Counted from the stretch's first letter, positions 13,158-29,956 are shown. The stretch: DNA of 31,381 nucleotides from Candidatus Hodarchaeota archaeon (GCA_016839815.1 JAEOTM010000124.1:1-31381), one strand, 5' to 3'. Numbers and translations are program-made. Notes: generated by a model not told the origin, from the letters alone.

Positions 13158-15059
13158 CTATAGTGGCAGTTGAATTGTATTTTTAATCAGAGACAAAAAT
13201 GTGGCTAAAGCGATAACTATCCCGACTCCTGCACCTGTACCAGCAAGTATTACTGCGCGATTCGTATTCCAATTTTCCATCCGACTTTTTAAAAGCTGGG
13301 CAAACAGCGCACCTAAGAAGGTGGTAAATGCATATGGAATAACTGTAATAGTTCCTACAGAAAACGAAATCACAGAGATAGGAATTGGTGTACCCCATTC
13401 AATAATGTATAGAAAGAGAGTAGCGATGAAAGCAATTCCAAGGATAATTGGATCAATAATTGCAGTTGGATTTGTGACGAAAGTAGCAATTTTACCTACT
13501 TCAAGAGGCCAAAAAGGAACTGGAAAGATTACAGAGGGAACTTGAGCTATCGAAAGAAGGGCGGATACCCAAAAGATTCCTGCAATCCAAGCGACAAACG
13601 AGGCCAAGAAATGGGCTTTAATTAAACTCCCTCGTTTTGTATATGTAAGGTCAGCCGTTTTAAATGTAGCAACCCATCCTGCTCCCCCTTGTGATATTAC
13701 TAAAGGTATGAACCAAATTTTACCACCTATAGGCGCATTTGCTGCAACAAAAGCCGACTCTTTTACGTAAGGTATAAGTGGAAGATTAGCTGTTATTCCG
13801 AAAGCATATGCCATGGTTAAGGAAGACAGAAAACTCCAACCAATCGTTAAGATAATAAGAACAATAATCATTTGTTGAGAAAGATCAGGAATAAGTAACC
13901 AAGCGACAACCACTGAACCTAATGTCCCTAATATGAAAAAACCAAAAAGAACACTTAATTTTGGTGTACCACCTTCAATCTCTTCCCCCTTTCCTTTGGA
14001 AAGTTTCCGTAAATCTCTTATAGTAGTTATAAAGATCTTAGGATTACGTAAGATGGGGATTAAGGCTGAGCTTAAGAGCAAACCAATTGTCCATGGTAGC
14101 CAAAAGTTCAGCTGAGAGTTATTGAATGTATCTACAAGAGACATTCCTTTTTCCCAACCGATATCTACGCTATTAGAAACAAGTAATGGATTTATAATTA
14201 AATTAACAAATATAGATCCTACAAGAATACTTACTACTACATTTAAAGGAAGAATAAAACCTGTGACAAAGAAAATAATATCTGTTGCAATCCCAAATGT
14301 TGCCCCGTTGAGAAATCCTTCAACTGAGGGTGTGAAATCAAACCAAGGAATCGGAATTAGAGTTATATCAAATACTAGAGGGAAAAAATACAGAATAAAA
14401 CCAGCAAAACTAGCGATAATCGCGCTAACAGAGAAAACCTGTAATTTATTTTTATCCTCCCATGTTAATGATTTTGCTCGTTCAGCCTCGACTTCAGCAG
14501 TCGGAAATGGTAACACTTCAACTTTTGTGTATAAGTAATTGAAGACTATTCCAAGAGAAATATCCGTAGATTTCGCTAGAAGAGCGTTAATAATGAGTAG
14601 TCCTAAGGGTAGGATAAAGACAGGATTTAAAATCGTCTGCACAGGACCAAAGTATGCTGGTGCAAACCAGTCGGGAATCAAAGCTGTGAGTGGAACACCA
14701 TTAATGAGCTGAGAGCTAATTATTGGATGATGTCGTAGATAATAATTGAAAACAAGCAGTACTATCATTTCCATACCAAGGGCCGTACTTGTCACATTAA
14801 TCAACATGAATACTTCTTGTTTAGTTAGAGGATTATCAGCTAATTTTGCAAATACAGCGAATAGGACTATTGTTGTGTTCAAAACTGCCCCAATAAACCA
14901 TTGGTTTGTTACAAAATATAGATAAATGGCAGCAGGCTGTATTATAACTGCGGAATACACTATTGCGAGACCAACTCGCCATGTGAATCCGCTTTGATAT
15001 TCCTCTTTATGCTCTTCCATCTCGATTGGTTCATCTTTGCTTACATTAATTTCACTCAT
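13158..15059 (-). CDS. OPT/YSL-superfamily-like multi-pass membrane protein
   Basis: Roughly 15-17 hydrophobic segments; SGFTWR, LTKQE, EVLPFP motifs typical of OPT-like 'peptide transporter' proteins; last gene of a 3-gene operon. Confidence 0.75.
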   Translation of the reverse strand: MSEINVSKDEPIEMEEHKEEYQSGFTWRVGLAIVYSAVIIQPAAIYLYFVTNQWFIGAVLNTTIVLFAVFAKLADNPLTKQEVFMLINVTSTALGMEMIVLLVFNYYLRHHPIISSQLINGVPLTALIPDWFAPAYFGPVQTILNPVFILPLGLLIINALLAKSTDISLGIVFNYLYTKVEVLPFPTAEVEAERAKSLTWEDKNKLQVFSVSAIIASFAGFILYFFPLVFDITLIPIPWFDFTPSVEGFLNGATFGIATDIIFFVTGFILPLNVVVSILVGSIFVNLIINPLLVSNSVDIGWEKGMSLVDTFNNSQLNFWLPWTIGLLLSSALIPILRNPKIFITTIRDLRKLSKGKGEEIEGGTPKLSVLFGFFILGTLGSVVVAWLLIPDLSQQMIIVLIILTIGWSFLSSLTMAYAFGITANLPLIPYVKESAFVAANAPIGGKIWFIPLVISQGGAGWVATFKTADLTYTKRGSLIKAHFLASFVAWIAGIFWVSALLSIAQVPSVIFPVPFWPLEVGKIATFVTNPTAIIDPIILGIAFIATLFLYIIEWGTPIPISVISFSVGTITVIPYAFTTFLGALFAQLLKSRMENWNTNRAVILAGTGAGVGIVIALATFLSLIKNTIQLPL

Positions 15060-15077
15060 GATTTGCTGCCCTCTGTA

Positions 15078-18000
15078 TCACTTTTTTAAATTTTTTCTGA
15101 ATTTCTCTGAATTCAACGCTTTTTCTTCTTTAGGAAGACTTCTCCAAATAAGCAGCTGCTTTCTAATACTATCTACAAATCGTCTAACCGAAGATTCCCA
15201 AGCAAGTAATATTCCTTCAAGACGGACTAAGTTAATCTCAAACACATAATGAAATTTAATTTCCTCTAGGTAGGAGTAGACATCTACTTCTTGTTTCAAT
15301 CCCGCATCGAATGGTGCTAAATTCACAGTAGCTGTAAGATGTTTTTCTTTTCGTTCTCGATCTGTTTCACTAGTAGCAATGTTTTGCGCGAAAAAAGCTC
15401 CTCCTACACTCTCTGATTCATAAATTTCAAAAAATTCTCGCAAAAACTCAATAATTCCTTCTGCTTCCTGTTCGGTTGCAGCTACGAATGGAAGTGGAAT
15501 ATTCCAGGTTTTTCCATCATCTTCATAGGTAGTCTTTAACTCCCATTTTCGTCGTACCGAGGGAACAGACATTTTGGCCGAGATTCTCAAGGGATAGATT
15601 GTACTAAGAAGGATTCCTCCAATTCCCAACCCTAGTGCTTGAACAATGGAACCTGAGGAATAATTGATGGCTAATGATTCTGGAAAGATCCCTAGTGCTG
15701 AGAGGACTACAGCTGATGTAATACCCATTAAATATCCTATTACAGATCCAATAACGGCATACACAAGAAATTCGGCTAAAAATAAGCCTGCTATATGGAC
15801 GGGTGCTAATCCTAGTGATGTAAATGTATTAATTTCTTTTTTTGACTCGTAAACGGTGCTAACTGAAGTATTGATCATTATTAAAACGGCTATTACTAAT
15901 GGGATTCCAAGCTCTCCCAATCCTTCTCCAAGACTTTGCAATTGACGTTTGAAAATGGTTACTTCATCATTATATCCTACTCTAACCTGTAAATTCCTAC
16001 CGTAGGTTGAGGATATTGTCCTTGCAATGTCTTCATAGAGAGTAAATTCTTGAGAAGTCTGATTTTCTGCTTTAATCGAAATTGAGGAAAGGGTTCCTCC
16101 AAATGATTTAACTGTATGAGCAGGTAGAATGAAAGTATCATCAGGATAGATATGGACATTTGGAGCTGGTGCGTGGTTGTTCTTTGGGGTTAATTTTTCA
16201 TTATCATAATCTCTTAAGCGTTCAAACTCTATCGAGTCCAAAATTCCCACGACTAAAAATTCTTGGCCTGCCCAAATAACTGTTTCATTGACTGCTACAT
16301 TTAATTTTTCACTAAGTTCATTAAACAAGATGCATTCTGAACCATTTGAGCTTGTAAACCATCTGCCAGATAGTAATATTGACTCAAGTGGATGAAAGTT
16401 TGTTTCTAAAGGTGTCATGCCTAGGATGGCTGAACCTTCCCACATGTTATTCCCATCAGGAGTTTCTACCTTAACATAACCATTCGGATACTCAGATTTG
16501 TCGGAGGGTGGATAGAGCCACCAGCGAGAGGCGATCTGAATTTCATCTTCATAAGATACTTCTAAATTTGTAATTAATTCTTCTGGTAATGGAAATTCCC
16601 AATCCTTCGTTCTAATATAAATACCATCGTAGGAGATTTCCTGAGCCTCTCCTTTTGAGAATGTAGCAACCTGAGTTGTTGCAGAAGTAAAAAGTGTTAA
16701 TGAGAATGTAATGAGAACAATCCCTGATAGTGCAATAACCGTTCTTCCTTTCCTTTTTTTCATTCTCGAAATTCCAGTACTCATGGCTATTAGCAAAGTA
16801 GAGGTTCGAGAAGTGTCAGCGAAATGCGAACCTAGCTGCTTAAGACGCAGACTCTTGAGGTAATCATAACCCTCTTGGTATATCATTAATAAGGCTGGAA
16901 ATACAAAGATTGTTGCTACAACTCCAACAATAATCATCGCGATATTTTGTGACAGATGCATCCCTGGATGGATAATATAAAAGAATCCAAATCCAGCCGC
17001 ATAAATCGTACTAGTAGCCAAAATTCGCTTTATTCCACTATCAAAATTAAATAATAACGCAGAAAGAGCAAAAGCAAATGGAATGAGAAGAACGGCGAAA
17101 AATATCGATGTAGCGGTTCCATCCTGTATTACTTTTCGTGCCTGCCTAAAAGAATCGTACGCCCAAGTATGGGATTCTATTATGGTAGCAATTGATTGCG
17201 AATATTGATACTTGCTCTTTAGTAGGTTTGCAGTGATTAATAAATCAGAGGCAGTTTCAAATGTAGTCTCCACCAAAGCATCATAGATATTATATCGTGT
17301 GTACAATGCGACATAGGTTTGGGTGATGGAGAGTAGATCTCTTGTAGTTATGAATGAGGAATAACCAAGATTTTGAAATTCTCCGTGCCCAAGAGTATAT
17401 CCCTTTCCTCGCAAGGTTTGGTTATCTGAATTTGTCGCATAAACTCCGAGTAAACCATCGTTGTATTTACCCACTATAATAGAGGGGATATCTGGTTGAA
17501 GGAATACTAAGCTTACAGTCTTAGATCCTGTATATCCATAAGAAAAGTATACATTTCTGGTCACAGGATCTAAAACGCTATAGTCTATATTATGTGCAGC
17601 ACTAACTTGTGTAAAAGGGTGATAAAGCCCAAAAATACTGATAGTGCCACAATCGAATACGGTAGGATTGACTGTGGTTCTCCTTTTTGTCAAAGTATTA
17701 GAGTTTTTGAAGTATTGACCCCGAGTTCCAAGATCAATAGCTTTAATCATTCTTCCATCTGTATCAAACTGATATGCTTCAACAACAAACTCAAGTGGAT
17801 AATCTGGTTGTTCTGAAGACACACCACGGATTTGGTAATAACCAGTTTCATCCGATTTAGTTATGTATGAATATTCGCCAAAGGTACTATCGCGATTATT
17901 GTAGGATCTAATCCTGACTAGAGCGTTTGGTACATTTACAAGCCACGCATTTGTCTCATCATACTGTTTTACGTATCCTTCTATGTAACCATAGCCAACA

Positions 18001-19583
18001 TGTGCATTAGTGGCAACTTTTAACGAAAATTGTTTATTTTCAAGATTGGTTAATACTGAATTTAAACCATCGTCTAGAATCAATTGAGTGTAAGCACATA
18101 AGCTATATATTACTTGGTTTTTCAGAAATGTGAAGTCTCTTAAAGAAATATGTGAATATAAATCAACGGGGGTATTGAATTTTAAACGATGTGATCCTGA
18201 TGTAAATAAAGATAATCCTAATACGTTTGATGCAATAAAAGGTTCATGATCACCTACAAAAGTTATGGGGGAAATATCCTTAAACTCCTTATTAGTAACA
18301 TATGATTCTACAGCAAAAGAATAACCTGATTCGCTCTCAATCAAATCTGTATAGCTCAAGAGATAATCTTGAGCAATATCCTTTAGTTTTGTAATGAGAC
18401 GATTTCCACTTGTGTATTGAAGTTGGAATTTGTACAAATATCCATATGGATTGATCGCGATTTTATCATTTGTAGAAGAAAGATCAAATGAAAGAAATAA
18501 TTTATACCCTTTGTTTTTATTTAAGGAACTATAATATTGGTCCACGAAATTTCTTGCCCCAGCTGCTTGTTGATTATGTCCTGAAAGAGCTAGAAACATG
18601 ATTGATTTTTCAGGTACAATATCATTTTCATTAATAAGACGAATGAATTCTAGAAGGGTCGCTATACTGCAAGATTCGTCTGCGCCGGGAGCAATAGCTG
18701 GGATAATTGATGTTGAATCGAAATATGCAGAAATAATTATGAAATCTTCACTTTTGCCCGGTAATATACCCATGACATTCTTTGCATCAATCGAAGTCCA
18801 TTCCATATCCGAATAGAGGGTAATTTGTTGATCTCCTGGAATTGATAGCCCCTTTATCATAGTAGCTGTGGTTTGATTTTCAATAAAAAGTCTGGGAAAG
18901 TGAAGAGGAATATCTAACGTTTTTTCTTCTGCTTCAAAACGATTAGTATCATTCGTAGGAAGAAAAATTACCCCACTAGCTCCTAGACTAGCTACTTTAA
19001 GCCAATTATCTAGTGAATTGAATTCAAGTACAACGATTGCATCTTCAATCTTTTTTCCATCCAACTCAGAATAAGTTCCTGTTCCTCCGTAAACTAGGGT
19101 ACCAGTTACTCCAATGGACGGAATTCTACTCGGATTTAGAGAATTTGGCATTAAAGTATGTGCAGTAAAATTCTCTCCTTCTACTTCGACACTTGTGCTT
19201 TTATCAATAGGAACTAGAAGAGGATACGTGGGAAAAGATACATTCTCTAAACCTTGATCAACAAAAAAGTCTCGAATATAATTTGCAGCAAGCTCATATC
19301 CTGGATAACCTGTAAACCGACTTCCACCAAAAGTGGAAAAATTGCTAATGTGACTTTGAATATTAGAAAAATATGTATTATTAATCTGGTTGCTTAATTC
19401 TTGATATCCTGGGAATTCTGCTGATTTAGAATTTGATTGTAAAACCTCAGTTTCTGTTAAATTATTTATTCTTTCTTCTCCATCTTCCTGAACAGATCTT
19501 TCTTCAAAAAAAAACTGATTACTTACCACAAGGGAGAATAGGAAAAAAAAGAAGAATAAGGTTCTGGAGTATTTCAAGATCAT
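15078..19583 (-). CDS. Fusion protein: PA + M28 peptidase-like ectodomain, carboxypeptidase-regulatory-like beta domain, TM bundle, MacB-type extracytoplasmic domain and FtsX permease
   Basis: SRFTGYPG..AANYI, PA-like GTLVYGGTG..GASGVIF, AYFDS..APGADE..LLEFIR, DHEPF; C-terminal FtsX signature VYESKKEINTFTSLGL..LFLAEFLVYAVIGSVIGYLMG and YPLRISAK. Confidence 0.85.
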   Translation of the reverse strand: MILKYSRTLFFFFFLFSLVVSNQFFFEERSVQEDGEERINNLTETEVLQSNSKSAEFPGYQELSNQINNTYFSNIQSHISNFSTFGGSRFTGYPGYELAANYIRDFFVDQGLENVSFPTYPLLVPIDKSTSVEVEGENFTAHTLMPNSLNPSRIPSIGVTGTLVYGGTGTYSELDGKKIEDAIVVLEFNSLDNWLKVASLGASGVIFLPTNDTNRFEAEEKTLDIPLHFPRLFIENQTTATMIKGLSIPGDQQITLYSDMEWTSIDAKNVMGILPGKSEDFIIISAYFDSTSIIPAIAPGADESCSIATLLEFIRLINENDIVPEKSIMFLALSGHNQQAAGARNFVDQYYSSLNKNKGYKLFLSFDLSSTNDKIAINPYGYLYKFQLQYTSGNRLITKLKDIAQDYLLSYTDLIESESGYSFAVESYVTNKEFKDISPITFVGDHEPFIASNVLGLSLFTSGSHRLKFNTPVDLYSHISLRDFTFLKNQVIYSLCAYTQLILDDGLNSVLTNLENKQFSLKVATNAHVGYGYIEGYVKQYDETNAWLVNVPNALVRIRSYNNRDSTFGEYSYITKSDETGYYQIRGVSSEQPDYPLEFVVEAYQFDTDGRMIKAIDLGTRGQYFKNSNTLTKRRTTVNPTVFDCGTISIFGLYHPFTQVSAAHNIDYSVLDPVTRNVYFSYGYTGSKTVSLVFLQPDIPSIIVGKYNDGLLGVYATNSDNQTLRGKGYTLGHGEFQNLGYSSFITTRDLLSITQTYVALYTRYNIYDALVETTFETASDLLITANLLKSKYQYSQSIATIIESHTWAYDSFRQARKVIQDGTATSIFFAVLLIPFAFALSALLFNFDSGIKRILATSTIYAAGFGFFYIIHPGMHLSQNIAMIIVGVVATIFVFPALLMIYQEGYDYLKSLRLKQLGSHFADTSRTSTLLIAMSTGISRMKKRKGRTVIALSGIVLITFSLTLFTSATTQVATFSKGEAQEISYDGIYIRTKDWEFPLPEELITNLEVSYEDEIQIASRWWLYPPSDKSEYPNGYVKVETPDGNNMWEGSAILGMTPLETNFHPLESILLSGRWFTSSNGSECILFNELSEKLNVAVNETVIWAGQEFLVVGILDSIEFERLRDYDNEKLTPKNNHAPAPNVHIYPDDTFILPAHTVKSFGGTLSSISIKAENQTSQEFTLYEDIARTISSTYGRNLQVRVGYNDEVTIFKRQLQSLGEGLGELGIPLVIAVLIMINTSVSTVYESKKEINTFTSLGLAPVHIAGLFLAEFLVYAVIGSVIGYLMGITSAVVLSALGIFPESLAINYSSGSIVQALGLGIGGILLSTIYPLRISAKMSVPSVRRKWELKTTYEDDGKTWNIPLPFVAATEQEAEGIIEFLREFFEIYESESVGGAFFAQNIATSETDRERKEKHLTATVNLAPFDAGLKQEVDVYSYLEEIKFHYVFEINLVRLEGILLAWESSVRRFVDSIRKQLLIWRSLPKEEKALNSEKFRKNLKK

Positions 19584-22116: not shown

Positions 22117-24540
22117 TTGATTCCCATGAAACATCTCCAAGCTAGGTTTTTAATTTCAGAAAAACATTCACTTTTGTTAAAGAGAGAAAATAACGCATAC
22201 AAGACAATTTTTGAATCAAATAGAAAAGGCGAATGGAAGGAAAGCGCCTTAATCCCGTTAATTACTTTGGAAGAAAACCAACCAGTATGGGCGACGGAAC
22301 TTCACCTGAATGATAGTGAAAATGGTCAGATAAATCTCCTTTTGGAGACGAGAAAGGAAAAGAATTACATAATTTCTACAGAAATTAAAACAAGTCCGAA
22401 TTTTCATCCATGGCTTCATTTTAGAACTACTATTAATTTTGAAAAGGACTACACATTCAACGAAATGGGACCAGAAGTAAAACTGGATCTTGGGTTGAAA
22501 GATTATCGTTTAGAAAACATGGTATCAATTCGACAGCCAACACGCCACACACCCTCCACTGATGAATGGAAGTCAAATGATATGCCAGCTACGGCGATTT
22601 GGAACTTTAAAACCAGATTACAATCATTTTTCTTCATGAATTTTTCAGAAATGGAATGGATGTCCCCTCAAACTATCGAACGTTTCTCAATCTATGAGTG
22701 CGGAATTCAGTCCGACGGGTTAATCGGTTTAGTCCATAGAATTCCACTTAAATCACCAGTTACGTTTTCCAAAGGGACAGTGCTCAACTTTGATTTCTTT
22801 TTTCTTCAAGAATTCCGAGAAGAACACCCTACACAATGGGATTTAGTAGAAGATCTTACTAAGCACTGTTTTAAGCTCGTTCCAAGTTATGTCCCTTTTG
22901 CAAGGGAAGGTTTAAACTGGACAGATTTTTCTGAAGGATGCATAGATGATCTAATGAAGGAAAATCTTTGCTGGGTAGATCCCAAATCTCCTAAATATTT
23001 CGCATACGTAATGGATGACTCTGAACTCAAACGAAGGGAAGCTATTGGTAGATCAAATATCTTCGAAACAATGACGTTACTCTCACTACTTCCACCATGG
23101 ATCTTGTATTCACAAATACATCAAAAAACGGAAATAATAAATCATCTAAAACTAATGTACAAAACTCTAGAGCATTTTATTGACCAAGAATCAGATTATT
23201 TTTACAATAATATAAAATTTAACCCTAATGAAAGTCATGAAATAATAAAAGCGACGGAGTATTCTATTGGTGATTCCTGGTATTTTTTTGAACCAATATT
23301 AAGACTAGGATGGGTGATACGTCTCGCTCCTTTATTAGATTTAGGCCAAAATTATTATAGGACCTTCAAGAATATGGTGAAGATGTCCACTGAATTTGTT
23401 ACTAAGCACAATTATGAAATCACAGCATTTTATGACCCTTTTACTCAAAAACCTCTTCATGAAGTTCTCGATAAGGATGGAGAAAGAGAAGAGCTCTTGA
23501 AGTTGTCAAGGGGTAAAGAGGACATAATTTGGAAGAAGAAGGCAAAAAATTTCGCTTGTCTTGGGATTCACCTATATATTGTTGTAGAAGCATATTATTT
23601 ATTCCAAGAAAAGCACTACCTTGAAGAAGCGATCAAAAGTGCAAAGAAATTAGCCAGTTTTTCTCCAGACATGTTATTTTGGGAACCATTCGAGATTGCT
23701 TATGCAGTTTCTGGATTTACTGATCTAACAAAAATTACAAATGATAATACTTACCTAGAAGTGGCAAAAAGATTTCTATTAAATGAATTAAGAATGTTCT
23801 ATTGGTATGAGGATAATTCCTTTAATTGGAAGGGTAAAAGATCAAATTTAGGATTACCAATGGCCTGTATTGGTATTCGATATCCAGCAGTAAAAGAAAA
23901 TGTTGAGTCAGTCCTTCCTTGGTTAATGTATCTAAAAACTGCAATGAATATTAAGGGAATTATGATACCCGAGGGAATATTGAAATTCTTAAATCTCGTT
24001 AGGATAAATACTTTTTACTTCTTCTCAGATGTATTGCCAAAGGAATTTATATATCCTCCAAGAAGAAACACTCCTTGTCCGTATATTCCATTTGAAGATC
24101 TTGAAATGCTTGAAACAGCTCCACATTTTTCTGTATCACAAGAATATGTTGAAAAAGGGTCACGTACTGGAATTTTGGGAAGAGAAATCTACGGAGCAGG
24201 AGAAATAATATACCTTTATTTGATGTTTGAGGCGTTAGCTAAATGTAATGTGTCTGATATAATGATTTTAAATCTAGATCTGTTTGATTTCTCTTTACTA
24301 AAAGAATTCCCTCCTAAAATCCTTAATTTTGTACTATATAATCCTTTAGAAGAATCCACAAAATGTCAGGTCGTTTTTTACACATGCGAAACAGAAATGT
24401 ACAAGATGAAACTATATTCACTTCAATCTGCAAAAGTTGCTCAAAATCTCACTCTCTCAAAGAAAGAATTAGATAATGGGATAGAGTTTGTCTTGGATAA
24501 AGAAGAGGTCTTAAATGTCACACTTACTCCGATAGAGTAA
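22117..24540 (+). CDS. Cytoplasmic alpha/alpha-toroid glycoside-hydrolase-like protein with N-terminal beta domain (paralog of 6345..8213)
   Basis: No signal peptide or TM; GDSWYF, EAYYLFQEKHYLEEA, PFEDLE, GREIYGAGE..YLMFEAL. Start TTG 22117 or ATG 22126. Confidence 0.7.
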   Translation: MIPMKHLQARFLISEKHSLLLKRENNAYKTIFESNRKGEWKESALIPLITLEENQPVWATELHLNDSENGQINLLLETRKEKNYIISTEIKTSPNFHPWLHFRTTINFEKDYTFNEMGPEVKLDLGLKDYRLENMVSIRQPTRHTPSTDEWKSNDMPATAIWNFKTRLQSFFFMNFSEMEWMSPQTIERFSIYECGIQSDGLIGLVHRIPLKSPVTFSKGTVLNFDFFFLQEFREEHPTQWDLVEDLTKHCFKLVPSYVPFAREGLNWTDFSEGCIDDLMKENLCWVDPKSPKYFAYVMDDSELKRREAIGRSNIFETMTLLSLLPPWILYSQIHQKTEIINHLKLMYKTLEHFIDQESDYFYNNIKFNPNESHEIIKATEYSIGDSWYFFEPILRLGWVIRLAPLLDLGQNYYRTFKNMVKMSTEFVTKHNYEITAFYDPFTQKPLHEVLDKDGEREELLKLSRGKEDIIWKKKAKNFACLGIHLYIVVEAYYLFQEKHYLEEAIKSAKKLASFSPDMLFWEPFEIAYAVSGFTDLTKITNDNTYLEVAKRFLLNELRMFYWYEDNSFNWKGKRSNLGLPMACIGIRYPAVKENVESVLPWLMYLKTAMNIKGIMIPEGILKFLNLVRINTFYFFSDVLPKEFIYPPRRNTPCPYIPFEDLEMLETAPHFSVSQEYVEKGSRTGILGREIYGAGEIIYLYLMFEALAKCNVSDIMILNLDLFDFSLLKEFPPKILNFVLYNPLEESTKCQVVFYTCETEMYKMKLYSLQSAKVAQNLTLSKKELDNGIEFVLDKEEVLNVTLTPIE

Positions 24541-24566: not shown

Positions 24567-24752
24567 TTAGCCACGACTTCTTGACATGCGTTGTCCATAA
24601 ATAGCTGTTGCTATAACCACAATGAGTAAGGTTATTTCAATAAGAAATAGGGATAGTTCACCAATTTCATTCATAACGTCAGTACTGAAAATAGCAAGTA
24701 GCAGAGCTATTACAACACATACACCCGCAATAATCTCATTGTTTTCTGCCAA
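24567..24752 (-). CDS. Small two-TM membrane protein (61 aa)
   Basis: Two hydrophobic stretches with a basic C-terminus; GGTGA RBS upstream of the TTG; fills an otherwise empty gap. Confidence 0.6.
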   Translation of the reverse strand: MAENNEIIAGVCVVIALLLAIFSTDVMNEIGELSLFLIEITLLIVVIATAIYGQRMSRSRG

Positions 24753-24845
24753 AATTTATTCACCAAAATTAGTATCGAACTTGTTTTTTTATTAATATTT
24801 TGTCAATTTTTAAGTTTTTTCCTGAAGAAATTACCTTATAGAGTG

Positions 24846-25583
24846 TTAATATGAAGGAATACTCACATCTTGCGAGGATATTGATACATCAATTCTTTTT
24901 TGCGTTCTTGTAATTTTACCATCACGTAACCAAGAAATCCTATCAGCAATATCAATTAATTTTAGATCATGAGTCGAATTAATCACAGTAACTCCAGTTT
25001 CATGTGAAATTTCTCGTAATAATTCAACAATGGCAAATCCTGTTTTTAAATCTAGATTTCCTGTGGGTTCGTCTGCTAGCACAAGACTTGGTTCTCCTGC
25101 CAGCGCGCGCGCGATAGCTACCCGCTGTTGCTGTCCTCCTGATAGTTCATCCGGTGTGTGGTTCATACGATCACCTAAACCAACACGCTCAAGCATTTCT
25201 TCAGCCCTCTTCCTTCGCTCTTTACGTGAGTATTTCTGAAAGACTAAGGGTAAAGCAACATTTTCCAATGCGGTAATGACTGGAACTAAATTGAATGTTT
25301 GGAAAATGAAACCAATTTTATATGCTCTTAAGGAAGCTAATTCTTTTTGAGTCATTTTGGAAAGGGGAACACCCTCAAAGTATACTTCTCCTTCTGAGGG
25401 AACGTCTAACGCACCAACCATATTGAGAAATGTTGTTTTCCCGCTACCTGATGGACCCATGATAACATGGAATTCACCACGGGGAATAGATAGAGAAATT
25501 CCATTTAATGCCTTGACTTCTTGAGTTCCCATTTGGTACGTCTTTACAACATTTTCCATCTGTATTGTAATGTTCTCTGTCAT
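24846..25583 (-). CDS. ABC transporter ATP-binding protein, MacB/LolD type
   Basis: Walker A GPSGSGKT, GFIFQTFNL, LSGGQQQRV, Walker B VLADEPT, H-loop STHD. ATG at 25583 follows a GGAGTGA RBS (track start GTG 25592). Confidence 0.95.
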   Translation of the reverse strand: MTENITIQMENVVKTYQMGTQEVKALNGISLSIPRGEFHVIMGPSGSGKTTFLNMVGALDVPSEGEVYFEGVPLSKMTQKELASLRAYKIGFIFQTFNLVPVITALENVALPLVFQKYSRKERRKRAEEMLERVGLGDRMNHTPDELSGGQQQRVAIARALAGEPSLVLADEPTGNLDLKTGFAIVELLREISHETGVTVINSTHDLKLIDIADRISWLRDGKITRTQKRIDVSISSQDVSIPSY

Positions 25584-25596
25584 GTTCTTCACTCCT

Positions 25597-26319
25597 TCAG
25601 GTCATCGCATCCACTTGTATATCCGCTCTATCTTCAATTCTATCTACTCTTCCATCACGAATCCAGATAATTCTGTCACTAATACTAATCATTTTCAGAT
25701 CATGAGTAGCAGAGACGATAGTTGTTCCTTGTTCTTCGTTGAGATTTCTGAGCAGTCCAATGATTTCTAATCCCGTGGCAAGGTCAAGGTTTGCTGTAGG
25801 TTCATCTGCTAGTATGATTGCGGGATCATTAGCTAAAGCTCTAGCTATGGCAACTCTTTGTTGTTGTCCTCCCGATAATTGTCCTGGTTTATTCTTAGCT
25901 CGATCTTCAAGCCCTACTAATTTTAATATCTCCTTTGATCTCTTCTTTCGATCCTCTCGTGGGACTCCAGCAAATACCATTGGGATTTCAACATTCTCTT
26001 GAGCAGAAAAGGCAAGTAGTAAGTTAAAGGTCTGAAAAATATACCCTATCTTCCTATTCCGTAACCATGCTAATTCGTATGCATCTAGTTCTGATATATC
26101 GACCTGATCGATATATATTTCTCCACTAGTAACTGTATCTAATCCCCCTATAGCATTGAATATTGTACTTTTACCTGATCCTGAAGGGCCCATAATGGAG
26201 ACATATTCTTCTCGTTTAATTTTGAAGGAAATCCCTTGAAGTGCATGAATGATAACCTTTCCTAATTGATATTGTTTATAAACATCATCTATTTCAACAA
26301 CATATTCTTCTAAACTCAT
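25597..26319 (-). CDS. ABC transporter ATP-binding protein, MacB/LolD type
   Basis: Walker A GPSGSGKS, GYIFQTFNL, LSGGQQQRV, ILADEPT, ATHD. Confidence 0.95.
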   Translation of the reverse strand: MSLEEYVVEIDDVYKQYQLGKVIIHALQGISFKIKREEYVSIMGPSGSGKSTIFNAIGGLDTVTSGEIYIDQVDISELDAYELAWLRNRKIGYIFQTFNLLLAFSAQENVEIPMVFAGVPREDRKKRSKEILKLVGLEDRAKNKPGQLSGGQQQRVAIARALANDPAIILADEPTANLDLATGLEIIGLLRNLNEEQGTTIVSATHDLKMISISDRIIWIRDGRVDRIEDRADIQVDAMT

Positions 26320-26334
26320 ATTTCAACCACCATA

Positions 26335-26937
26335 TTAGTTTTCATACCTTAAAGCTTCAGCTGGTGATAGTTTAGAAGCTCTCCGAGCAGGAATATACGT
26401 TGCTAGAGAAGTTAATACGATAGCTATTATTAGACAAGCTAGGAGTAACAAGATTATAGAAGTAATATTTGCTTCTAAGAGGACAATTAACTCATCTAGT
26501 GATGCTCTATTCAGATTTATTCCAATTCCCATTCCAATACCAATGATTCCTCCAAAAAATCCACCTAAAACTCCCAGAAGTAATGCTTCCACAATGAATA
26601 AGCGGACGATATGAGTATCTAATCCTCCAATGCATTTGTAAACTCCAATTTCCTTTACTCTTTCGTTAACGGCCATTAACATGGAATTAGTTATTCCCCC
26701 AAACGCAACTATTAATGAAATCCCAACTAACCAATACTGATATGCTTCTACACCCTTTTCTGTCTGTAACCAATCTAAGATAAGTGAATTTGTTAAGAGT
26801 GCAGCCATGAAGGCGATACCAAGTATAATGCCTAATGCTGTGATAACAGATCGGAAAAATCGTCTTCTAATATTTGAATATGAGAGATATAATACTTCGG
26901 AGAGTGAAAACTCTGGTTCGGGGAGATCTAGGCTCAT
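26335..26937 (-). CDS. Minimal FtsX-like ABC permease lacking an extracytoplasmic domain
   Basis: NIRRRFFRSVITALGIILGIA, GITNSMLMAVNERVKEIGVYKCIG, IPARRASKLSPAEALRYE; only about 15 aa between TM1 and TM2. Confidence 0.9.
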   Translation of the reverse strand: MSLDLPEPEFSLSEVLYLSYSNIRRRFFRSVITALGIILGIAFMAALLTNSLILDWLQTEKGVEAYQYWLVGISLIVAFGGITNSMLMAVNERVKEIGVYKCIGGLDTHIVRLFIVEALLLGVLGGFFGGIIGIGMGIGINLNRASLDELIVLLEANITSIILLLLACLIIAIVLTSLATYIPARRASKLSPAEALRYEN

Positions 26938-27311
26938 GCTATTACCTCCTCAGAACTTGATCTTTCCTCGTCCATCTCTATTCCTTTCATAACCTTCTCC
27001 CATTGAACGAGTTTCTCTGTTATATCAATAAGGTGCTTTCTAAGGATCTCGACTGTCTTTTCTTCGTTCATTCTAGTTGCATTCCACGTCACATATGGCG
27101 CATAGAATTTACCTTTTTCCAAAATAATTTTCCTATTCGTATCAATACGAAATTTCAAATACCCTAATTCTCTTAAGTAGCAATAATCATTTTTACAAAT
27201 GATATCGATTTCTCCACCTTCATCAGAATCTTTTTTCAAATAGAGAAGGGAGTAATCCGAATAGCCATTAATTGATTTGCCACATGGGCATTGAATAGTG
27301 TTTTCGGACAT
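26934..27311 (-). CDS. Small Cys4 (putative Zn-binding) protein, translationally coupled to the FtsX gene
   Basis: CPCG ... CKNDYC; ATGA stop/start overlap at 26934-26937. Confidence 0.75.
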   Translation of the reverse strand: MSENTIQCPCGKSINGYSDYSLLYLKKDSDEGGEIDIICKNDYCYLRELGYLKFRIDTNRKIILEKGKFYAPYVTWNATRMNEEKTVEILRKHLIDITEKLVQWEKVMKGIEMDEERSSSEEVIA

Positions 27312-27343
27312 AAATATTTATTCCTTGGATTATTCAAGAAGTT

Positions 27344-27373
27344 TACTTTAACCTAAATTAGCTGGTTAAAGTA
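27344..27373. repeat. Perfect 10-bp inverted repeat with 10-nt spacer upstream of the Cys4/FtsX/ATPase operon
   Basis: TACTTTAACC-taaattagct-GGTTAAAGTA, in the intergenic region between the dehydrogenase stop and the 125-aa start. Confidence 0.7.
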
Positions 27374-27404
27374 CTTTTGGAGTATCTTGTTTCCTATGAG
27401 GATT

Positions 27405-28451
27405 TTACGGTTTTATTAAAACCTTATTCACATCATCTAGCTGACTTTTTGCTAGAGAAATTGCTTTTTCGATACTCGTAAGTTGGAATTCATGGGAAAT
27501 CAATGAAGTAGGTGTTATTGTTTGATCAGATAGTAAATTTAAAGCCATTAGATTTGTGTCGGGATTAGTAAAGGATCCAAATAAGGAAATTTCGTTTGCA
27601 TATAATCTGTGAATATCTAAATTAATAGTTGACAGTGGATCAGCCACCCCAAAAATAAGTGCTTTTCCTCCTTTGTTGAGGCTATCAATTGCTTGCTTTG
27701 CTGTGAGCTTTGAACCTACACATTCTATTGCAACATCTACTCCCTGACCTTGAGTTTCAGTTTTAAGAGTTGGGAACACATCCTCCTCAAATGGGTCTAA
27801 AATAATATCTGCTCCGATTTTTTCCGCCAATTTTCTCCTGGATTTTACAGGTTCACTTACTAGCGTCTTACATTGTGTGGTTGCCTTGATAACAGAAAGC
27901 ATCAATAAGCCGATCGGCCCTCCCCCGATAATATAGATTACATCAGATTCAGTAATATCGATCTTATTCAAACCATGTAAACAACAAGCGAGCGGTTCCA
28001 TGAATGCAGCCGATTTTAAGGAGACATTTTCCGGTATCTTATACGCTACTGTACTTGGACATATCACATACTCCGCAAATGCTCCATTTCGTGTAACACC
28101 AATGGCTTCCCAAGATTGACAAAAATGATTTCGATTTTTTTCACAATAGTAACAAGAATCCCTTTGTAGATCATTACAGGATAAATTTGGGTTGATGGCT
28201 ACTCGATCTCCGATTTGTAAGTCATTTCTTAGCTTAGAACCAACTTTCACTATCTCTCCTGAAAATTCATGACCTGGTACTAATGGGTACTTTGCAAATG
28301 GGACTTTTCCATCAAATAGATGAATATCCGTCCCACAGAGACCACAATATCCAGTTTTTACGAGAATCTCGGTTTCTTTAATCTTTGGAATGTCAATCGT
28401 TTGTAAACTGACTTTTTCTGGCTCCACAAATAAAGCAACGTTATTTAACAA
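27405..28451 (-). CDS. Zn-dependent medium-chain dehydrogenase, sorbitol/polyol/sugar dehydrogenase-like
   Basis: GLCGTDIH, GHEFSG, four structural-Zn cysteines, EPLACCLH, GGGPIG Rossmann motif, acidic residue in SEP (NAD preference). Confidence 0.9.
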   Translation of the reverse strand: MLNNVALFVEPEKVSLQTIDIPKIKETEILVKTGYCGLCGTDIHLFDGKVPFAKYPLVPGHEFSGEIVKVGSKLRNDLQIGDRVAINPNLSCNDLQRDSCYYCEKNRNHFCQSWEAIGVTRNGAFAEYVICPSTVAYKIPENVSLKSAAFMEPLACCLHGLNKIDITESDVIYIIGGGPIGLLMLSVIKATTQCKTLVSEPVKSRRKLAEKIGADIILDPFEEDVFPTLKTETQGQGVDVAIECVGSKLTAKQAIDSLNKGGKALIFGVADPLSTINLDIHRLYANEISLFGSFTNPDTNLMALNLLSDQTITPTSLISHEFQLTSIEKAISLAKSQLDDVNKVLIKP

Positions 28452-28522
28452 TCCTAATAAACCTCTATTACATCTTCCGATAGTTAGCTATCTTCATCAT
28501 CATTCTAGGACTGGATCTTAAT

Positions 28523-29479
28523 ATGGACTTTAAAACCATTGGTTGGCAGGATATAGTCTTAAAAGTTCCTGATGAATGGGAAATAGTATTTGCAACGAAA
28601 CCACCCAAGAAGAAAGGTAAAGAAAAAACTGGCTATTTTGGCTTTCGGACCACAAAGAAAAAACTCCTCGAATTTCGATGGGTAGAGGTCGAGAAGGGGA
28701 AAGCTCCAGATTTAGATGTTGTTATTGGTGACTATTTCAATACTATTCAAAAAGAACAGAAACGAATTAAGAAACGAACCGACAGCGGGATTGAAGTCTC
28801 CACACACAAAGGAAAAACCCTGTACTGGACATCAGAAGATATGTCACTTCATGGTTATATTGTAGCATGGTATTGCAATGTTCTACACAGGTTAATCATA
28901 ATGCAAAGTCAATTTTCAAGTGATGAAGCCCATAAAATTAAAACAGATATTATGCAAGTCTTAGAAACGGTTAAATGTCATCCAGTAGATTACGAAAGTA
29001 AGTGGGTTGCACCAAATCTTACCATTTTTACCCCACGATCAATGTATTTGATTAAACAAGCTTTTTTAGTCGGGTTATCATTTTTTCAACTTCGATATGA
29101 AATTCTTGATATTTACTGTTACAGAATAGGGTTGGCCAACCAAAAAATCAATTCAATCGATGAATTACCAGCTTGGTTCCTGAATTATTATCCTAAAACT
29201 CTTCCAGGTATCCCTTCAGGGTTTAAACCAATTGAAGAGGACTTTAGCAAGAAAACACTCAGCAAGAAAAAAGATATAGTATGGAACTACAATAATAAGG
29301 AACAGAAAAGCACTTTCCCACTTAAATCAAAATCCGTATTTCAAGGATATTTTTGGCAAAATGAAGAAAAAAATGATATATACTGTTTAATATTCAAGTA
29401 CAAACGTCAATCATCAACAAATAAGAATATTGTGCAAATAATTGAGAAAATGTTTAGCTTAGCAGTTAGGAATAATTAA
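28523..29479 (+). CDS. Hypothetical soluble protein (318 aa), neighbour of the PqqD-like gene
   Basis: Long ORF; N-terminal GWQDIVLKVPDEWE resembles the start of PsbP/Mog1/DcrB-like folds (inference). Confidence 0.7.
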   Translation: MDFKTIGWQDIVLKVPDEWEIVFATKPPKKKGKEKTGYFGFRTTKKKLLEFRWVEVEKGKAPDLDVVIGDYFNTIQKEQKRIKKRTDSGIEVSTHKGKTLYWTSEDMSLHGYIVAWYCNVLHRLIIMQSQFSSDEAHKIKTDIMQVLETVKCHPVDYESKWVAPNLTIFTPRSMYLIKQAFLVGLSFFQLRYEILDIYCYRIGLANQKINSIDELPAWFLNYYPKTLPGIPSGFKPIEEDFSKKTLSKKKDIVWNYNNKEQKSTFPLKSKSVFQGYFWQNEEKNDIYCLIFKYKRQSSTNKNIVQIIEKMFSLAVRNN

Positions 29480-29491
29480 ATAGTGATTTTT

Positions 29492-29956
29492 TTATTCCAT
29501 AGAGACCTCTTCAACTGTTTTACCTTTTAAATCTGACTTTTCAACCATTTCCTGGGGAATTTGCCATCCAATAAGATGTCTCATATTGAGAAGTGTAAGG
29601 TATTTTGTGACTGCTGTTTCAGTCTCGGTGAACGTTAATTTATATTCCTCTTGAAATTTCTTAATTATTTGCTTAACTGTATTATTTCCATCGCATAATT
29701 CGAAAGTAAATTTACCTAGTTTATCCAATTGTATCTTTTTATAGTTTGGTGATGGAAGTAGTCTTCTTCTCAATGATTTCTTTTTAAATTTTGAAATATC
29801 AACTTCAAGCAATATTTGATCATCTTTTTCTTTTAAAACGGTTATGAATGTGCTTTGAATTGGTTTTAATTTATAGAATTCCTCTTTAGTTACGTGAAGA
29901 GATTTCTTCTCCATTTTATTTGCTTTTTTTGAGGTTGATCCTTTGGATGATGTCAT
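29492..29956 (-). CDS. PqqD-family (RiPP recognition element-like) protein
   Basis: IQLDKLGKFTFELCDGNNTVKQIIKKF...AVTKYLTLLNMRHLI matches the PqqD pattern L[DN]xxGxxxWxLxDGxxTVxxI plus terminal helix. Confidence 0.8.
   Translation of the reverse strand: MTSSKGSTSKKANKMEKKSLHVTKEEFYKLKPIQSTFITVLKEKDDQILLEVDISKFKKKSLRRRLLPSPNYKKIQLDKLGKFTFELCDGNNTVKQIIKKFQEEYKLTFTETETAVTKYLTLLNMRHLIGWQIPQEMVEKSDLKGKTVEEVSME

Follow-up and report, generated by a model that had tools for sequence, protein, structure and literature searches.

An undescribed archaeal membrane system that combines a MacB/FtsX-type ABC motor with two OPT-fold permeases and may serve glycan uptake

A Hodarchaeales (Asgard archaeon) locus was found to encode an undescribed membrane system consisting of a MacB/FtsX-type ABC motor, two OPT-fold permeases, and three cytoplasmic proteins of no known family. 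The motor genes lie in cis of the permease genes and encode their candidate motor. The arrangement of the genes is far beyond chance, and it is repeated in paralogous clusters and across two phyla of archaea; a search of the literature found no description of the system. We consider the chances about even that the system is a modular glycan-uptake machine, in which one shared type VII ABC motor serves exchangeable receptor/OPT-channel cassettes. If sugar-polymer uptake is confirmed, it would represent a new kind of nutrient importer.

The window analyzed here is the whole stretch of 31,381 nucleotides. A previous sequence-only reading had placed the cluster at positions 13158–29956. Every gene listed in it proved to be an intact ORF at the coordinates first given, and the family assignments were borne out; however, the proposed limits excluded a conserved 226-aa gene lying just outside. 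Below, “giant” denotes the 1501-aa FtsX fusion and its orthologs, and “triad” denotes the DUF6785, giant, and OPT-like genes. The features are as follows:

12471–13151, plus strand: 226-aa cytoplasmic accessory protein, family unassigned, conserved with the system
13158–15059, minus strand: 633-aa OPT-like permease, family homology to OPT, own Pfam match absent
15078–19583, minus strand: 1501-aa giant, Peptidase_M28, MacB_PCD and FtsX (Pfam)
19638–21833, minus strand: 731-aa DUF6785/DUF6784 permease, Pfam DUF6785 (E 6e-34) and DUF6784 (2e-8)
22117–24540, plus strand: 807-aa (alpha/alpha)6-toroid protein, GH76-like (w807), between the two operons
24846–25592, minus strand: ABC ATPase 2, 248 aa, MacB/LolD type, ABC_tran E 5e-34
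25597–26319, minus strand: ABC ATPase 1, 240 aa, MacB/LolD type, ABC_tran E 8e-36
26335–26937, minus strand: mini-FtsX, 200 aa, FtsX E 2e-16 (Pfam)
26934–27311, minus strand: Cys4 protein, 125 aa, four invariant Cys
27405–28451, minus strand: Zn-dependent alcohol/polyol dehydrogenase, ADH_N and ADH_zinc_N
28523–29479, plus strand: 318-aa cytoplasmic accessory protein, family unassigned
29492–29956, minus strand: PqqD-like protein, 154 aa, PqqD E 7e-7, above the cut-off

From its N-terminus, the giant comprises an anchor, a PA/M28-like pseudo-peptidase ectodomain, a further ectodomain, and a bundle of three TM segments, which are followed by a MacB-type TM1-PCD-TM2-4 unit and a conserved cytoplasmic C-terminal domain of ~150 aa. 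Pfam assigned Peptidase_M28 to residues 269–482 (E 2e-12), MacB_PCD to 948–1178, and FtsX to 1229–1339. The PA domain proposed earlier was called in relatives but not in the window's own copy. Alignment to the Vibrio aminopeptidase revealed that the canonical metal site is missing (H97 replaced by Y, E151 by H, and E152 by N; the last His ligand, H256, placed by alignment of giants, is N), which agrees with the previous description of the M28 domain as a pseudo-peptidase. This replacement pattern was common to 23 giants: the E151 position was His in 22/23, while the E152 and H256 positions were never Glu or His and often Trp or Tyr. Aromatic residues at these former metal-ligand positions may resemble sugar-binding sites. 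Identity between giant orthologs was 58–84% within the genus and about 30% to those of Bathyarchaeia.

Both flanking permeases, previously read as OPT-like, belong to the OPT superfamily according to Pfam matches in family members and hhalign. The 633-aa protein itself had no Pfam match; nevertheless, its same-genome paralog c686 (30% identity) matched Pfam OPT with an E value of 6e-13. Pfam OPT was also matched by 5/9 members of the 633-aa family and by some members of DUF6785, a large family with 4982 clusters at 50% identity. The hhalign comparison of the 633-aa family with DUF6785 gave an end-to-end alignment (569 columns, prob 99.3, E 5e-20). By homology, the two permeases are full-length OPT-superfamily paralogs of each other, the 731-aa protein being a divergent paralog of the 633-aa protein. 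In the latter, hydropathy analysis flagged 17 partly overlapping segments, corresponding to roughly a dozen distinct TM segments. At every locus examined, the OPT-like gene adjoined a giant.

The mini-FtsX has four TM segments without an extracytoplasmic domain; only about 14 residues separate TM1 and TM2, and the loop measured about 12–15 residues in an alignment of 10 orthologs. The two ATPases are 51% identical to each other, and both retain intact Walker A/B, signature, and H-loop motifs. ATPase 2 matched the LolD model with an E value of 7e-73, below the equivalog cut-off. On the phylogenetic tree, the “second” ATPases of three cluster types formed one clade (support 98/99), and all motor ATPases clustered apart from the remaining MacB-type ATPases of the genome. 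ATPase 1 showed 64–68% identity to the Bathyarchaeia ATPases that flank mini-FtsX and Cys4 genes. The presence of two distinct ATPases fits with two distinct FtsX halves. The Cys4 ORF shares 4 nt with the start of mini-FtsX, and its residues C8, C10, C39, and C44 were unchanged across 14 sequences; it was 42–47% identical to Bathyarchaeia copies located after an ATPase gene. Its AF2 model (pLDDT 80.6) had no convincing PDB match. This protein is a putative conserved cytoplasmic subunit of the motor.

Neither the 226-aa nor the 318-aa protein contains a TM segment, the former also lacking a signal, and no Pfam or PDB match was obtained for either. The genome has a second cluster, in which a 226-aa paralog (c234) stands between the giant and DUF6785, and a 318-aa paralog leads the giant's operon as its first gene. 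Eight families in total (giant, DUF6785, OPT-like, mini-FtsX, ATPase, Cys4, 318-aa, and 226-aa) recur in that cluster at 21–64% identity, and the second cluster type is complete in a relative, G007. A third, “disassembled” cluster contains most of the eight families; there, the neighbors of the motor copy are an OPT-like gene, a gene for a 579-aa FtsX+PCD protein, and a pair of free-standing M28-like genes. Thus, the genome holds three separately diverged motor copies, each adjacent to a giant/FtsX plus OPT-like set. The type-1 block of the window was syntenic in nine Hodarchaeales genomes (39–93% identity), and the 226-aa gene was syntenic in eight genomes.

The phyletic profiles were concordant, with the caveat that the system-bearing genomes are mutually related, so that the counts represent few independent events. 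Among 41 relatives, 13 genomes had a full-length giant, and the 318-aa family showed exactly this distribution; mini-FtsX was found in all 13 and Cys4 in 12 of them; according to the Cys4/mini-FtsX profile, G013 and G023 were additional carriers of motor parts. Neither Cys4 nor mini-FtsX was found in the eight giant-less genomes of the genus. Among 101 Bathyarchaeia, the giant, 318-aa, and 226-aa families shared the same five genomes, the 226-aa homologs often adjoining a giant, and Cys4 was present in these five and in two genomes without a detected giant. The mini-FtsX was single-copy in 6/7 giant-bearing Bathyarchaeia genomes, and an ortholog was also found in at least one genome without a detected giant. 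Thus, in both phyla, the occurrence of the Cys4, 318-aa, and 226-aa families coincides almost perfectly with that of the giant.

In Bathyarchaeia, the triad has multiplied, with about 18 copies per genome, and the motor parts are encoded elsewhere in one or two copies. One genome contained 18 loci with a giant and an OPT-like gene, and the sequence retrieved for 16 of them also included DUF6785; the same genome carried one mini-FtsX gene, two Cys4 genes, and two ATPase pairs, none near triads. Instead, these motor genes have CdvA-like and aldehyde:ferredoxin oxidoreductase genes as neighbors. Between the phyla, identity was 36–68% for motor parts and 24–37% for cassette parts.

Such separation counts against a shared machine and raises the possibility that two independent gene sets are adjacent in Hodarchaeales through a lineage-specific accident. 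In that case, the triad would import its substrate in the manner of OPT transporters, driven by protons, with its FtsX-like component as a passive accessory that has no ATPase, and mini-FtsX, the ATPases, and Cys4 would belong to a small ABC system of their own. The lack of any ATPase within 10 kb of triads in Bathyarchaeia and metagenome contigs is in line with this, as is the occurrence of mini-FtsX and Cys4 in genomes without a detected giant. However, three diverged motor copies in one genome are each associated with a giant/FtsX plus OPT-like set; three families with no other known role follow the giant across two phyla, the 226-aa homologs of Bathyarchaeia even adjoining it; and the giant has kept the elbow helix, TM1-4, and the conserved cytoplasmic domain. 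We therefore regard independence as highly unlikely. The paralogous clusters, the synteny, and the near-perfect co-occurrence agree that operon A (the triad) and operon B (the motor genes) constitute one conserved system, and they uphold the earlier proposal that the two complement each other.

The gene context points to sugar-polymer uptake. In one Bathyarchaeia genome, glycoside hydrolases accounted for 11/61 triad neighbors vs 3/71 random proteins, a modest enrichment (p about 0.02) that is based on top-25 family tallies only, in a genome rich in CAZymes anyway. The catalytic domains of these hydrolases begin at residues 12–29, leaving no signal peptide, and the enzymes look cytoplasmic. 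Glycoside hydrolases and sugar oxidoreductases dominated the top neighbor families, among which Zn-alcohol dehydrogenase genes recurred. Bacterial DUF6785 genes, which have no FtsX partner, adjoin GH5, LacI, GH123, and GFO/IDH/MocA genes. Thus, the CAZyme association noticed in the window extends to Bathyarchaeia and bacteria, and of the relatives suggested in the sequence-only reading, those in other archaea were found, whereas PVC-like bacteria have DUF6785 alone.

Within the window, the 807-aa protein is predicted to be cytoplasmic, without a signal or TM segment. Its AF2 model (pLDDT 79.9) contains a toroid domain that aligned with GH76 alpha-mannanases over about 320 residues (Z 20–23, rmsd 3.6–4.0 Å); the protein probably processes the glycan cargo enzymatically. 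The gene was syntenic in nine genomes and missing from the second cluster type; an extracellular paralog is located at 6345–8213. A GH2 protein is likewise predicted inside the cell, and four surface-anchored proteins with conserved synteny are predicted outside. The Zn-alcohol dehydrogenase gene was present in most syntenic loci and missing in two (L028 and L030); it is dispensable to the system.

The functionally characterized OPT relatives transport peptides or metal chelates rather than sugars, which counts against a glycan cargo, as does the peptide-binding PqqD-like protein nearby. Instead of free glycans, peptides or glycopeptides might be imported: peptide termini would be bound by the ectodomain of M28/PA origin, oligopeptides would be carried by the OPT-fold pair as they are by its eukaryotic relatives, and the PqqD-like protein would handle the peptide in the cytoplasm. 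The OPT and M28 ancestry is compatible with such an import, and so are the pyroglutamyl peptidase at 3626–4246 and the single Asparaginase_2 (glycosylasparaginase-type) and NamZ (NamZ_N) genes among the Bathyarchaeia neighbors. Apart from these two matches, however, no peptidase family occurred among the top neighbor families of Bathyarchaeia, and the Trp/Tyr residues at the former metal-ligand positions would rather suit a sugar. The PqqD-like gene, listed earlier as a component, does recur near FtsX paralogs and was syntenic in some genomes, but mostly directly upstream of shorter paralogs of about 1000–1250 aa (L016, L042, and G000:C60); it was missing from most triad loci, and its association with the system is loose. 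Peptide import thus appears quite unlikely, and the cargo is most likely oligosaccharides or glycoconjugates.

In the proposed glycan-uptake machine, the motor layer would be an asymmetric type VII (MacB/FtsX-type) ABC core built from mini-FtsX, the two distinct ATPases, and Cys4, to which the cytoplasmic 318-aa and 226-aa proteins probably belong as well; it is present in one or two copies in Bathyarchaeia and in three, once per cluster, in this Hodarchaeales genome. The giant and the DUF6785-type and OPT-like permeases would form a substrate-specific cassette layer that can be multiplied. Outside the cell, surface-anchored proteins (4315–12298) would bind and cut the polymer, and the metal-site-less PA/M28 ectodomain together with the MacB periplasmic core domain of the giant would capture the ligand. 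The giant would supply the second FtsX half alongside mini-FtsX, with each half resting on its own ATPase. Through ATP-driven motion such as occurs in MacB, LolCDE, and FtsEX, the ectodomain would load or gate the OPT-fold pair, which would form the membrane path. Processing of the product inside the cell would fall to the 807-aa GH76-like enzyme, GH2, and the dehydrogenase.

To our knowledge, the type VII ABC systems characterized so far are all directed outward or toward the envelope, including by activation of extracytoplasmic partners, and no importer is known among them, which counts against uptake. The same parts could work outward: surface-anchored (glyco)proteins or lipid-linked glycans might be extracted, released, or activated by the motor and the giant, or these might turn on extracellular hydrolases in the manner of FtsEX, with the OPT-fold proteins serving as scaffolds or exporters. 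The four syntenic surface-anchored proteins are consistent with such a function, as are the CdvA-like gene at the Bathyarchaeia motor loci and the clostripain-like, beta-lactamase-like, and Rce1-like genes beside the third paralog type. However, about 18 cassettes, each located by different cytoplasmic-looking catabolic glycoside hydrolases, fit nutrient acquisition better; bacterial DUF6785 lies beside sugar-catabolic genes and a LacI regulator without an FtsX partner; and known OPT/Yellow-Stripe-like members are importers. We consider outward work fairly unlikely.

Comparison with known type VII ABC systems (MacB, LolCDE, FtsEX, HrtBA, BceAB) shows that an FtsX-type membrane domain with four TM segments is shared, as are the MacB periplasmic core domain that the giant carries between TM1 and TM2, MacB/LolD-type ATPases with intact motifs, and two unlike FtsX halves, as in LolC/LolE. 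In contrast to these systems, the mini-FtsX half lacks an extracytoplasmic domain entirely; the giant adds about 800 extracellular residues (pseudo-M28/PA domain), three TM segments, and a cytoplasmic tail of 150 aa; the ATPases are encoded by two different genes, and the system has no membrane-fusion, outer-membrane, or hydrolase partner; linkage to two OPT-fold permeases and three unassigned cytoplasmic proteins is genetically obligate; and the Bathyarchaeia motor genes are separate from the many cassettes. Both permeases are homologous over their full length to the OPT/Yellow-Stripe-like family (Pfam PF03169, TC 2.A.67), but they are very divergent, the 633-aa copy missing the Pfam model; they form an unlike pair that in archaea always lies beside an FtsX-type giant, in a context of glycan catabolism rather than peptide or metal-chelate use.

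The giant shares an M28 fold following a PA-type region with nicastrin, nicalin, the transferrin receptor, Vibrio AAP, and GCPII, and, like nicastrin and the transferrin receptor, has no co-catalytic zinc site; in contrast to them all, its M28 fold is fused to an FtsX permease, and a conserved His occupies the position of the catalytic Glu of M28 aminopeptidases. Pfam Nicastrin matches in two paralogs were weak and below the Pfam cut-off, and they do not indicate a relationship to gamma-secretase or ER complexes. By analogy only, the system recalls the polysaccharide utilization loci of Bacteroidota (SusC/SusD with a TonB-ExbBD motor) and group II ECF transporters (a shared EcfAA'T with many S components): substrate-specific receptor/channel cassettes lie by matching glycoside hydrolases while the motor is encoded once elsewhere, with surface-anchored binding and cutting proteins outside and processing enzymes inside. 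The SusC/D, TonB, and ECF components have no homology to the system described here, whose hosts are archaea with a single membrane and whose energy would come from ATP via the ABC motor.

All open reading frames named in the sequence-only reading were recovered as described there by ORF calling and translation of the window, which is contig C85 of a 4.24-Mb assembly with a completeness of 89.5%. Three genes formed operon A (21833->13158, minus strand) and four formed operon B (27311->24846, minus strand). The genes of both operons and those between and around them were as follows:

12471-13151, plus strand: 226-aa protein
13158-15059, minus strand: 633-aa polytopic, OPT-like protein (operon A)
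15078-19583, minus strand: 1501-aa M28-like/MacB_PCD/FtsX protein, here called the giant (operon A)
19638-21833, minus strand: 731-aa protein with DUF6785 and DUF6784 (operon A)
22117-24540, plus strand: 807-aa protein, w807
24846-25592, minus strand: ATPase of 248 aa (operon B)
25597-26319, minus strand: ATPase of 240 aa (operon B)
26335-26937, minus strand: 200-aa FtsX protein, mini-FtsX (operon B)
26934-27311, minus strand: 125-aa Cys-rich protein, Cys4 (operon B)
27405-28451, minus strand: Zn-alcohol dehydrogenase
28523-29479, plus strand: 318-aa protein
29492-29956, minus strand: 154-aa PqqD-like protein
around the operons, plus strand: GH2 protein

The genes of operon A are termed the triad, or cassette, and those of operon B the candidate motor, or motor for short. 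The 226-aa gene ended 7 nt from the 633-aa gene, and the stop of the Cys4 gene overlapped the start of the mini-FtsX gene. The 731-aa protein matched both Pfam models, with 117.8 bits for DUF6785 (cut-off 25) and 35 bits for DUF6784 (cut-off 26.4). The PqqD domain was detected in the 154-aa protein at 30 bits (cut-off 23.4). In Pfam and family searches, the window ORFs included neither radical SAM, YcaO or cyclase genes nor a gene for a precursor, and a RiPP export system was rejected because both maturase and precursor were missing there. The PqqD-like gene, which the sequence-only reading had counted among the parts of the machine, is only loosely tied to the system here and more often precedes shorter FtsX paralogs.

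At the genomic level, strong evidence from paralogous clusters, synteny and phyletic profiles in two phyla joined operons A and B into one unit, as their complementary content had led the sequence-only reading to propose. A second cluster was located on contig C104 of the same genome, and each of its genes was a paralog of a window gene (21–64% identity). Its order was ATPase (truncated at the end of the contig) <- mini-FtsX <- Cys4, then -> 318-aa -> 1643-aa giant -> 234-aa -> 991-aa DUF6785 -> 686-aa OPT. The ortholog of this cluster in another genome (locus L042) was complete, with both ATPases present. By analogy with L042, contig C60 probably continues C104, with the starts of the two contigs adjoining (G000:C60:1-4447 and G000:C104:1-533, G000 being the genome of the window). 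C104 starts within the first ATPase and C60 with the second one; next on C60 come genes for a 1010-aa FtsX protein and a PqqD-like protein, an arrangement identical to that of L042. A third motor copy on contig C101 (G000:C101:8589-23944) had the same order of Cys4, mini-FtsX, ATPase and ATPase; beyond the motor, this “disassembled” cluster contained two ~460-aa genes, a 730-aa OPT-like gene, a 579-aa protein with FtsX and the periplasmic core domain (PCD) and without M28, and two free M28-like genes (405 and 415 aa). The type-1 block, extending from the 318-aa gene through the surface proteins past the 226-aa gene, kept its order in nine Hodarchaeales genomes, with identities of 39–93%.

The full-length giant was present in 13 of 41 relatives, all within one genus, and the 318-aa family occurred in exactly these 13. 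Orthologs of mini-FtsX were found in all 13 giant-bearing relatives and the Cys4 family in 12 of them, both also being present in relatives G013 and G023. The 318-aa, mini-FtsX and Cys4 families were absent from all eight giant-less genomes of the genus; outside the genus, a clear mini-FtsX ortholog was observed in one Bathyarchaeia genome in which no giant was found. Of 101 evenly sampled Bathyarchaeia genomes, five had the giant; the 318-aa and 226-aa families were found in these same five, and Cys4 in the five and two more. The Fisher p values for co-occurrence were tiny but overstate the case, because of the kinship among the carrier genomes; the important point is that the set travels together in two phyla. 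We consider it quite likely that the parts belong to one functional system.

Three Pfam domains were assigned to the giant:

residues 269-482: Peptidase_M28 (E 2e-12)
residues 948-1178: MacB_PCD (E 1e-6; 29.6 bits, cut-off 27)
residues 1229-1339: FtsX (E 3.7e-11, above the cut-off)

The layout of the protein was derived from its translation, a hydropathy scan and an alignment of six relatives. An N-terminal anchor is followed by ~800 extracellular residues, comprising a PA-like region, the M28-like domain and a poorly conserved stretch. After this ectodomain come three TM segments, a basic cytoplasmic elbow, and a MacB-type TM1, the periplasmic core domain and TM2-4. The C-terminal part is a conserved cytoplasmic domain of ~150 residues, which bears one of the two most conserved motifs in the family. 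According to Pfam and the TM layout, the four-TM FtsX membrane domain of type VII ABC systems was present in both the giant and mini-FtsX. The PCD between TM1 and TM2, also characteristic of that class, was found in the giant and not in mini-FtsX or the 1253-aa paralog type. The 1253-aa paralog of the giant in the genome of the window (G000:C36:25075-28827; L018:7076-10837), which lacks the MacB periplasmic core domain, had no OPT-like or motor genes nearby and adjoined clostripain-like C11 peptidase, beta-lactamase-like and Rce1-like genes; a PqqD-like gene preceded the same paralog type in another genome.

The match of the giant to M28 was real at the level of the fold. The canonical M28 site consists of the ligands H97, D117, E152, D179 and H256 and the catalytic E151 (Vibrio aminopeptidase, AAP, numbering). 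In the alignment of the giant with AAP (E 5e-10), H97 corresponded to Tyr, the catalytic E151 to His and E152 to Asn; the last His ligand, H256, placed via the alignment of giants, was Asn in the window protein. Among 23 aligned giants, His occupied the catalytic position E151 in 22, and E152 was never Glu; N, Y, H, W, T or A stood there instead, and several copies from Bathyarchaeia had Trp. None of the 23 had His at position 256, and D117 was variable. Thus, an active co-catalytic zinc aminopeptidase was rejected, as the metal site is missing from the M28 domain of the giant. The domain has an M28 fold and is not a canonical M28 peptidase; its non-canonical site is old and stable. Where the metal ligands once stood, the residues vary and are often aromatic, which suggests a pocket diversified for binding.

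Mini-FtsX matched the Pfam FtsX model at E 1.7e-16, above the cut-off, and its TM1-TM2 loop had ~14 residues. The two ATPases were of the MacB/LolD type, shared 51% identity and had all motifs intact. Their best NCBIfam matches were LolD, MacB, DevA and FtsE (E 1e-60 to 1e-73), all under the equivalog cut-offs; thus, neither ATPase is an ortholog of any named system. On the tree, the motor ATPases formed one clade separate from the other MacB-type ATPases of the genome, and the “second” ATPases of three Hodarchaeales cluster types grouped together (support 98/99), which indicates that the ATPase pair predates the split into cluster types. Two unlike ATPases would fit two unlike FtsX halves, for which the giant and mini-FtsX are the candidates. 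Gene adjacency and phyletic co-occurrence bear indirectly on the putative assembly of these halves on the ATPases. The complex prediction for giant residues 905-1350 and mini-FtsX, run with our own alignments, scored 0.27 and 0.23 (mark 0.32) and was counted neither way. For the Cys4 model (pLDDT 80.6), no convincing structural relative was obtained: Foldseek returned nothing at E<=0.001, the best VIA Z score was 5.2, and Yippee/RIG-I-CTD-like zinc folds reached only Z ~3.5–4.5. Searches of PDB sequences with w807 and the 318-aa and 226-aa families gave no match, and the Cys4, 318-aa and 226-aa families had no relatives in Pfam, NCBIfam or PDB.

The proposal that both permeases flanking the giant are divergent members of the OPT superfamily was borne out by profile comparison and by Pfam matches in relatives. 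Direct BLASTP between the 633-aa and DUF6785 proteins gave only E 0.08, so that profiles were needed to link them; hhalign of nine 633-aa-type against ten DUF6785 proteins resulted in a probability of 99.3 (E 5e-20, 569 columns). The 633-aa protein of the window had no Pfam match at E 0.01, and five of the nine proteins of its type matched Pfam OPT (best E 5.5e-14), as did some DUF6785 members. The paralog c686, the OPT-like protein of the second cluster, matched OPT (PF03169) at E 6e-13 over profile positions 104-621. Homology of the 633-aa protein to OPT is thus clear at the superfamily level, and this copy is at most a putative member of the OPT family itself. No fused giant/OPT protein or longer form of the OPT-like family was found, in a search that carries little weight as evidence.

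Of 121 sampled Asgard genomes, 117 yielded no giant; outside the one genus, a single partial match was obtained. Restriction to Asgard archaea was rejected, since the giant was also present in Bathyarchaeia. When 185,579 species genomes were scanned with just two peptide patterns, which gives a lower bound, it was detected in Hodarchaeales-type MAGs and Bathyarchaeia only; metagenome contigs contained additional archaeal triads. DUF6785 alone was much more widely distributed: it formed 4982 clusters at 50% identity and extended to Armatimonadota, Elusimicrobiota and PVC-like bacteria, in which it occurred without the FtsX partner.

One 3.4-Mb Bathyarchaeia genome contained 18 loci with giant and OPT-like genes in variable order, and a DUF6785 gene lay inside the fetched stretch at 16 of them. 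Away from these loci, the genome had one mini-FtsX gene, two Cys4 genes and two pairs of ATPase genes. In two other Bathyarchaeia genomes, the motor genes were arranged as ATPase -> Cys4 ... mini-FtsX -> <- ATPase within ~5 kb. Identity between the phyla was 36–68% for motor parts and 24–37% for cassette parts. In its logic, the combination of a conserved low-copy motor with many diverged cassettes matches TonB and its SusC/D partners, or the group II ECF transporters. At the Bathyarchaeia motor loci L099 (G164:C8:54000-68000), L100, L101 and L102, a conserved aldehyde:ferredoxin oxidoreductase gene interrupted the series of ATPase, Cys4, mini-FtsX and ATPase; a CdvA-like coiled-coil gene preceded the motor genes in three of the four, and TldD/PmbA-like genes followed them in L099. 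The CdvA-like and oxidoreductase neighbors could reflect mere common ancestry of the locus or hint at another role of the motor.

The ATPases encoded at 24846-26319 of the window were 58–68% identical to those of L099–L102, i.e., between Hodarchaeales (Asgard) and Bathyarchaeia (Thermoproteota), and the system was patchy, occurring in 5 of 101 Bathyarchaeia genomes and in one of 43 Asgard genera. Such identity together with the patchiness suggests horizontal transfer between sediment archaea.

One possible function is the proton-coupled import of oligopeptides or metal chelates of the OPT type; the gene context points instead toward glycans. The neighbor pool comprised 61 non-triad proteins of at least 170 aa from 19 fetched Bathyarchaeia loci (18 with the giant). 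Its glycoside hydrolases belonged to GH78 (3), GH42/GHL6 (3), GH10 (2), GH3, NamZ and GH106, and GFO/IDH/MocA oxidoreductases (4) and Zn-ADH (3) were also present. The CAZyme enrichment looked for beside the triads was detected: glycoside hydrolases made up 11 of the 61 neighbors versus 3 of 71 control proteins drawn from arbitrary positions of that genome (p = 0.02); both counts come from top-25 tallies and are lower bounds. In the neighbor hydrolases examined, the catalytic domain began at residue 12–29 and no signal peptide was present; these enzymes should be cytoplasmic. Other triad or DUF6785 contexts included GH5+LacI+GH123, GFO/IDH/MocA, oligogalacturonate lyase, DUF4185, GH57, GH4 and GH130.

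In the window, four genes at 4315-12298 (651, 622, 470 and 754 aa) had no Pfam match and encoded proteins with a signal sequence and a C-terminal anchor, from which they are predicted to be surface proteins. In most of the nine genomes they kept synteny with the transporter block, and they probably form an outer layer of the locus, for binding and cutting. Neither signal sequence nor anchor was present in w807 or in the GH2, 318-, 226- and 125-aa proteins. The w807 model (pLDDT 79.9, pTM 0.86) consisted of a beta-sandwich, an (alpha/alpha)6 toroid and a second beta-sandwich, and the best structural matches of the toroid were GH76 alpha-mannanases (Z 20–23, rmsd 3.6–4.0 Å, ~320 residues). The product of 6345-8213, predicted to be extracellular from its signal sequence and C-terminal anchor, was a paralog of w807 with 28% identity; the two appear to represent one unclassified enzyme family with cytoplasmic and extracellular copies. 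GH130 and GH4 in the same block of another genome hint at a mannose-containing substrate. Enzymes outside, a membrane system and enzymes inside constitute the layout of an uptake locus, which supports import of glycan fragments and does not prove it.

In the proposed mechanism, a shared type VII ABC motor, composed of mini-FtsX, the two ATPases, Cys4 and two further cytoplasmic proteins, would drive exchangeable cassettes, in each of which a giant FtsX protein bearing the receptor would be joined by a heterodimeric channel of the OPT fold. Three points weigh against the full model, in which a shared ABC motor powers glycan uptake via OPT-fold cassettes: Bathyarchaeia motor genes adjoin the CdvA-like and oxidoreductase genes and not the triads, mini-FtsX occurs in a genome in which no giant was found, and known type VII ABC systems act outward. 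We regard this full model as evenly poised between right and wrong.

In sediments, Bathyarchaeia and Asgard archaea rank with the most abundant organisms and are thought to live on detrital polymers, and little has been described of how they take up glycans. If the model is correct, the system would be a main route of carbon entry, with up to ~18 copies per genome, each beside different glycoside hydrolases, and would serve as a genome marker for predicting substrate use. It would also give a function to DUF6785/DUF6784, with their thousands of clusters, and to three unannotated protein families. The window itself would be useful experimentally, as motor, cassette, surface proteins and cytoplasmic enzymes lie in one clonable block of ~25 kb.

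Literature searches on DUF6785, on nicastrin/Asgard/FtsX, on archaeal type VII ABC systems with OPT and on Bathyarchaeia/FtsX/GH retrieved no description of the system, and a survey of Asgard transporters mentions only uncharacterised MacB-family homologs (PMC7997004). As read from its sequences, the system adds permeases of the OPT superfamily to a core of the type VII ABC class. We know of no described system that combines the two, nor of any with an ectodomain-less FtsX half or with the Cys4, 318-aa and 226-aa families. To our knowledge, all known type VII ABC systems act outward; if the model holds, this would be the first MacB/FtsX-type mechanotransducer paired with permeases of a secondary-transporter fold, and perhaps also the first member of this ABC class to act in import. 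Tentatively, and with somewhat less than an even prospect, it may represent a new class of primary-active importers, an archaeal counterpart of TonB/SusCD and the main sediment glycan route of Bathyarchaeia and Hodarchaeales, passed between the phyla by transfer. Neither SusC-like TonB-dependent transporters nor SusD-like lipoproteins were among the families of the window ORFs, and the likeness to SusC/SusD polysaccharide utilisation loci would be one of locus logic, not of descent.
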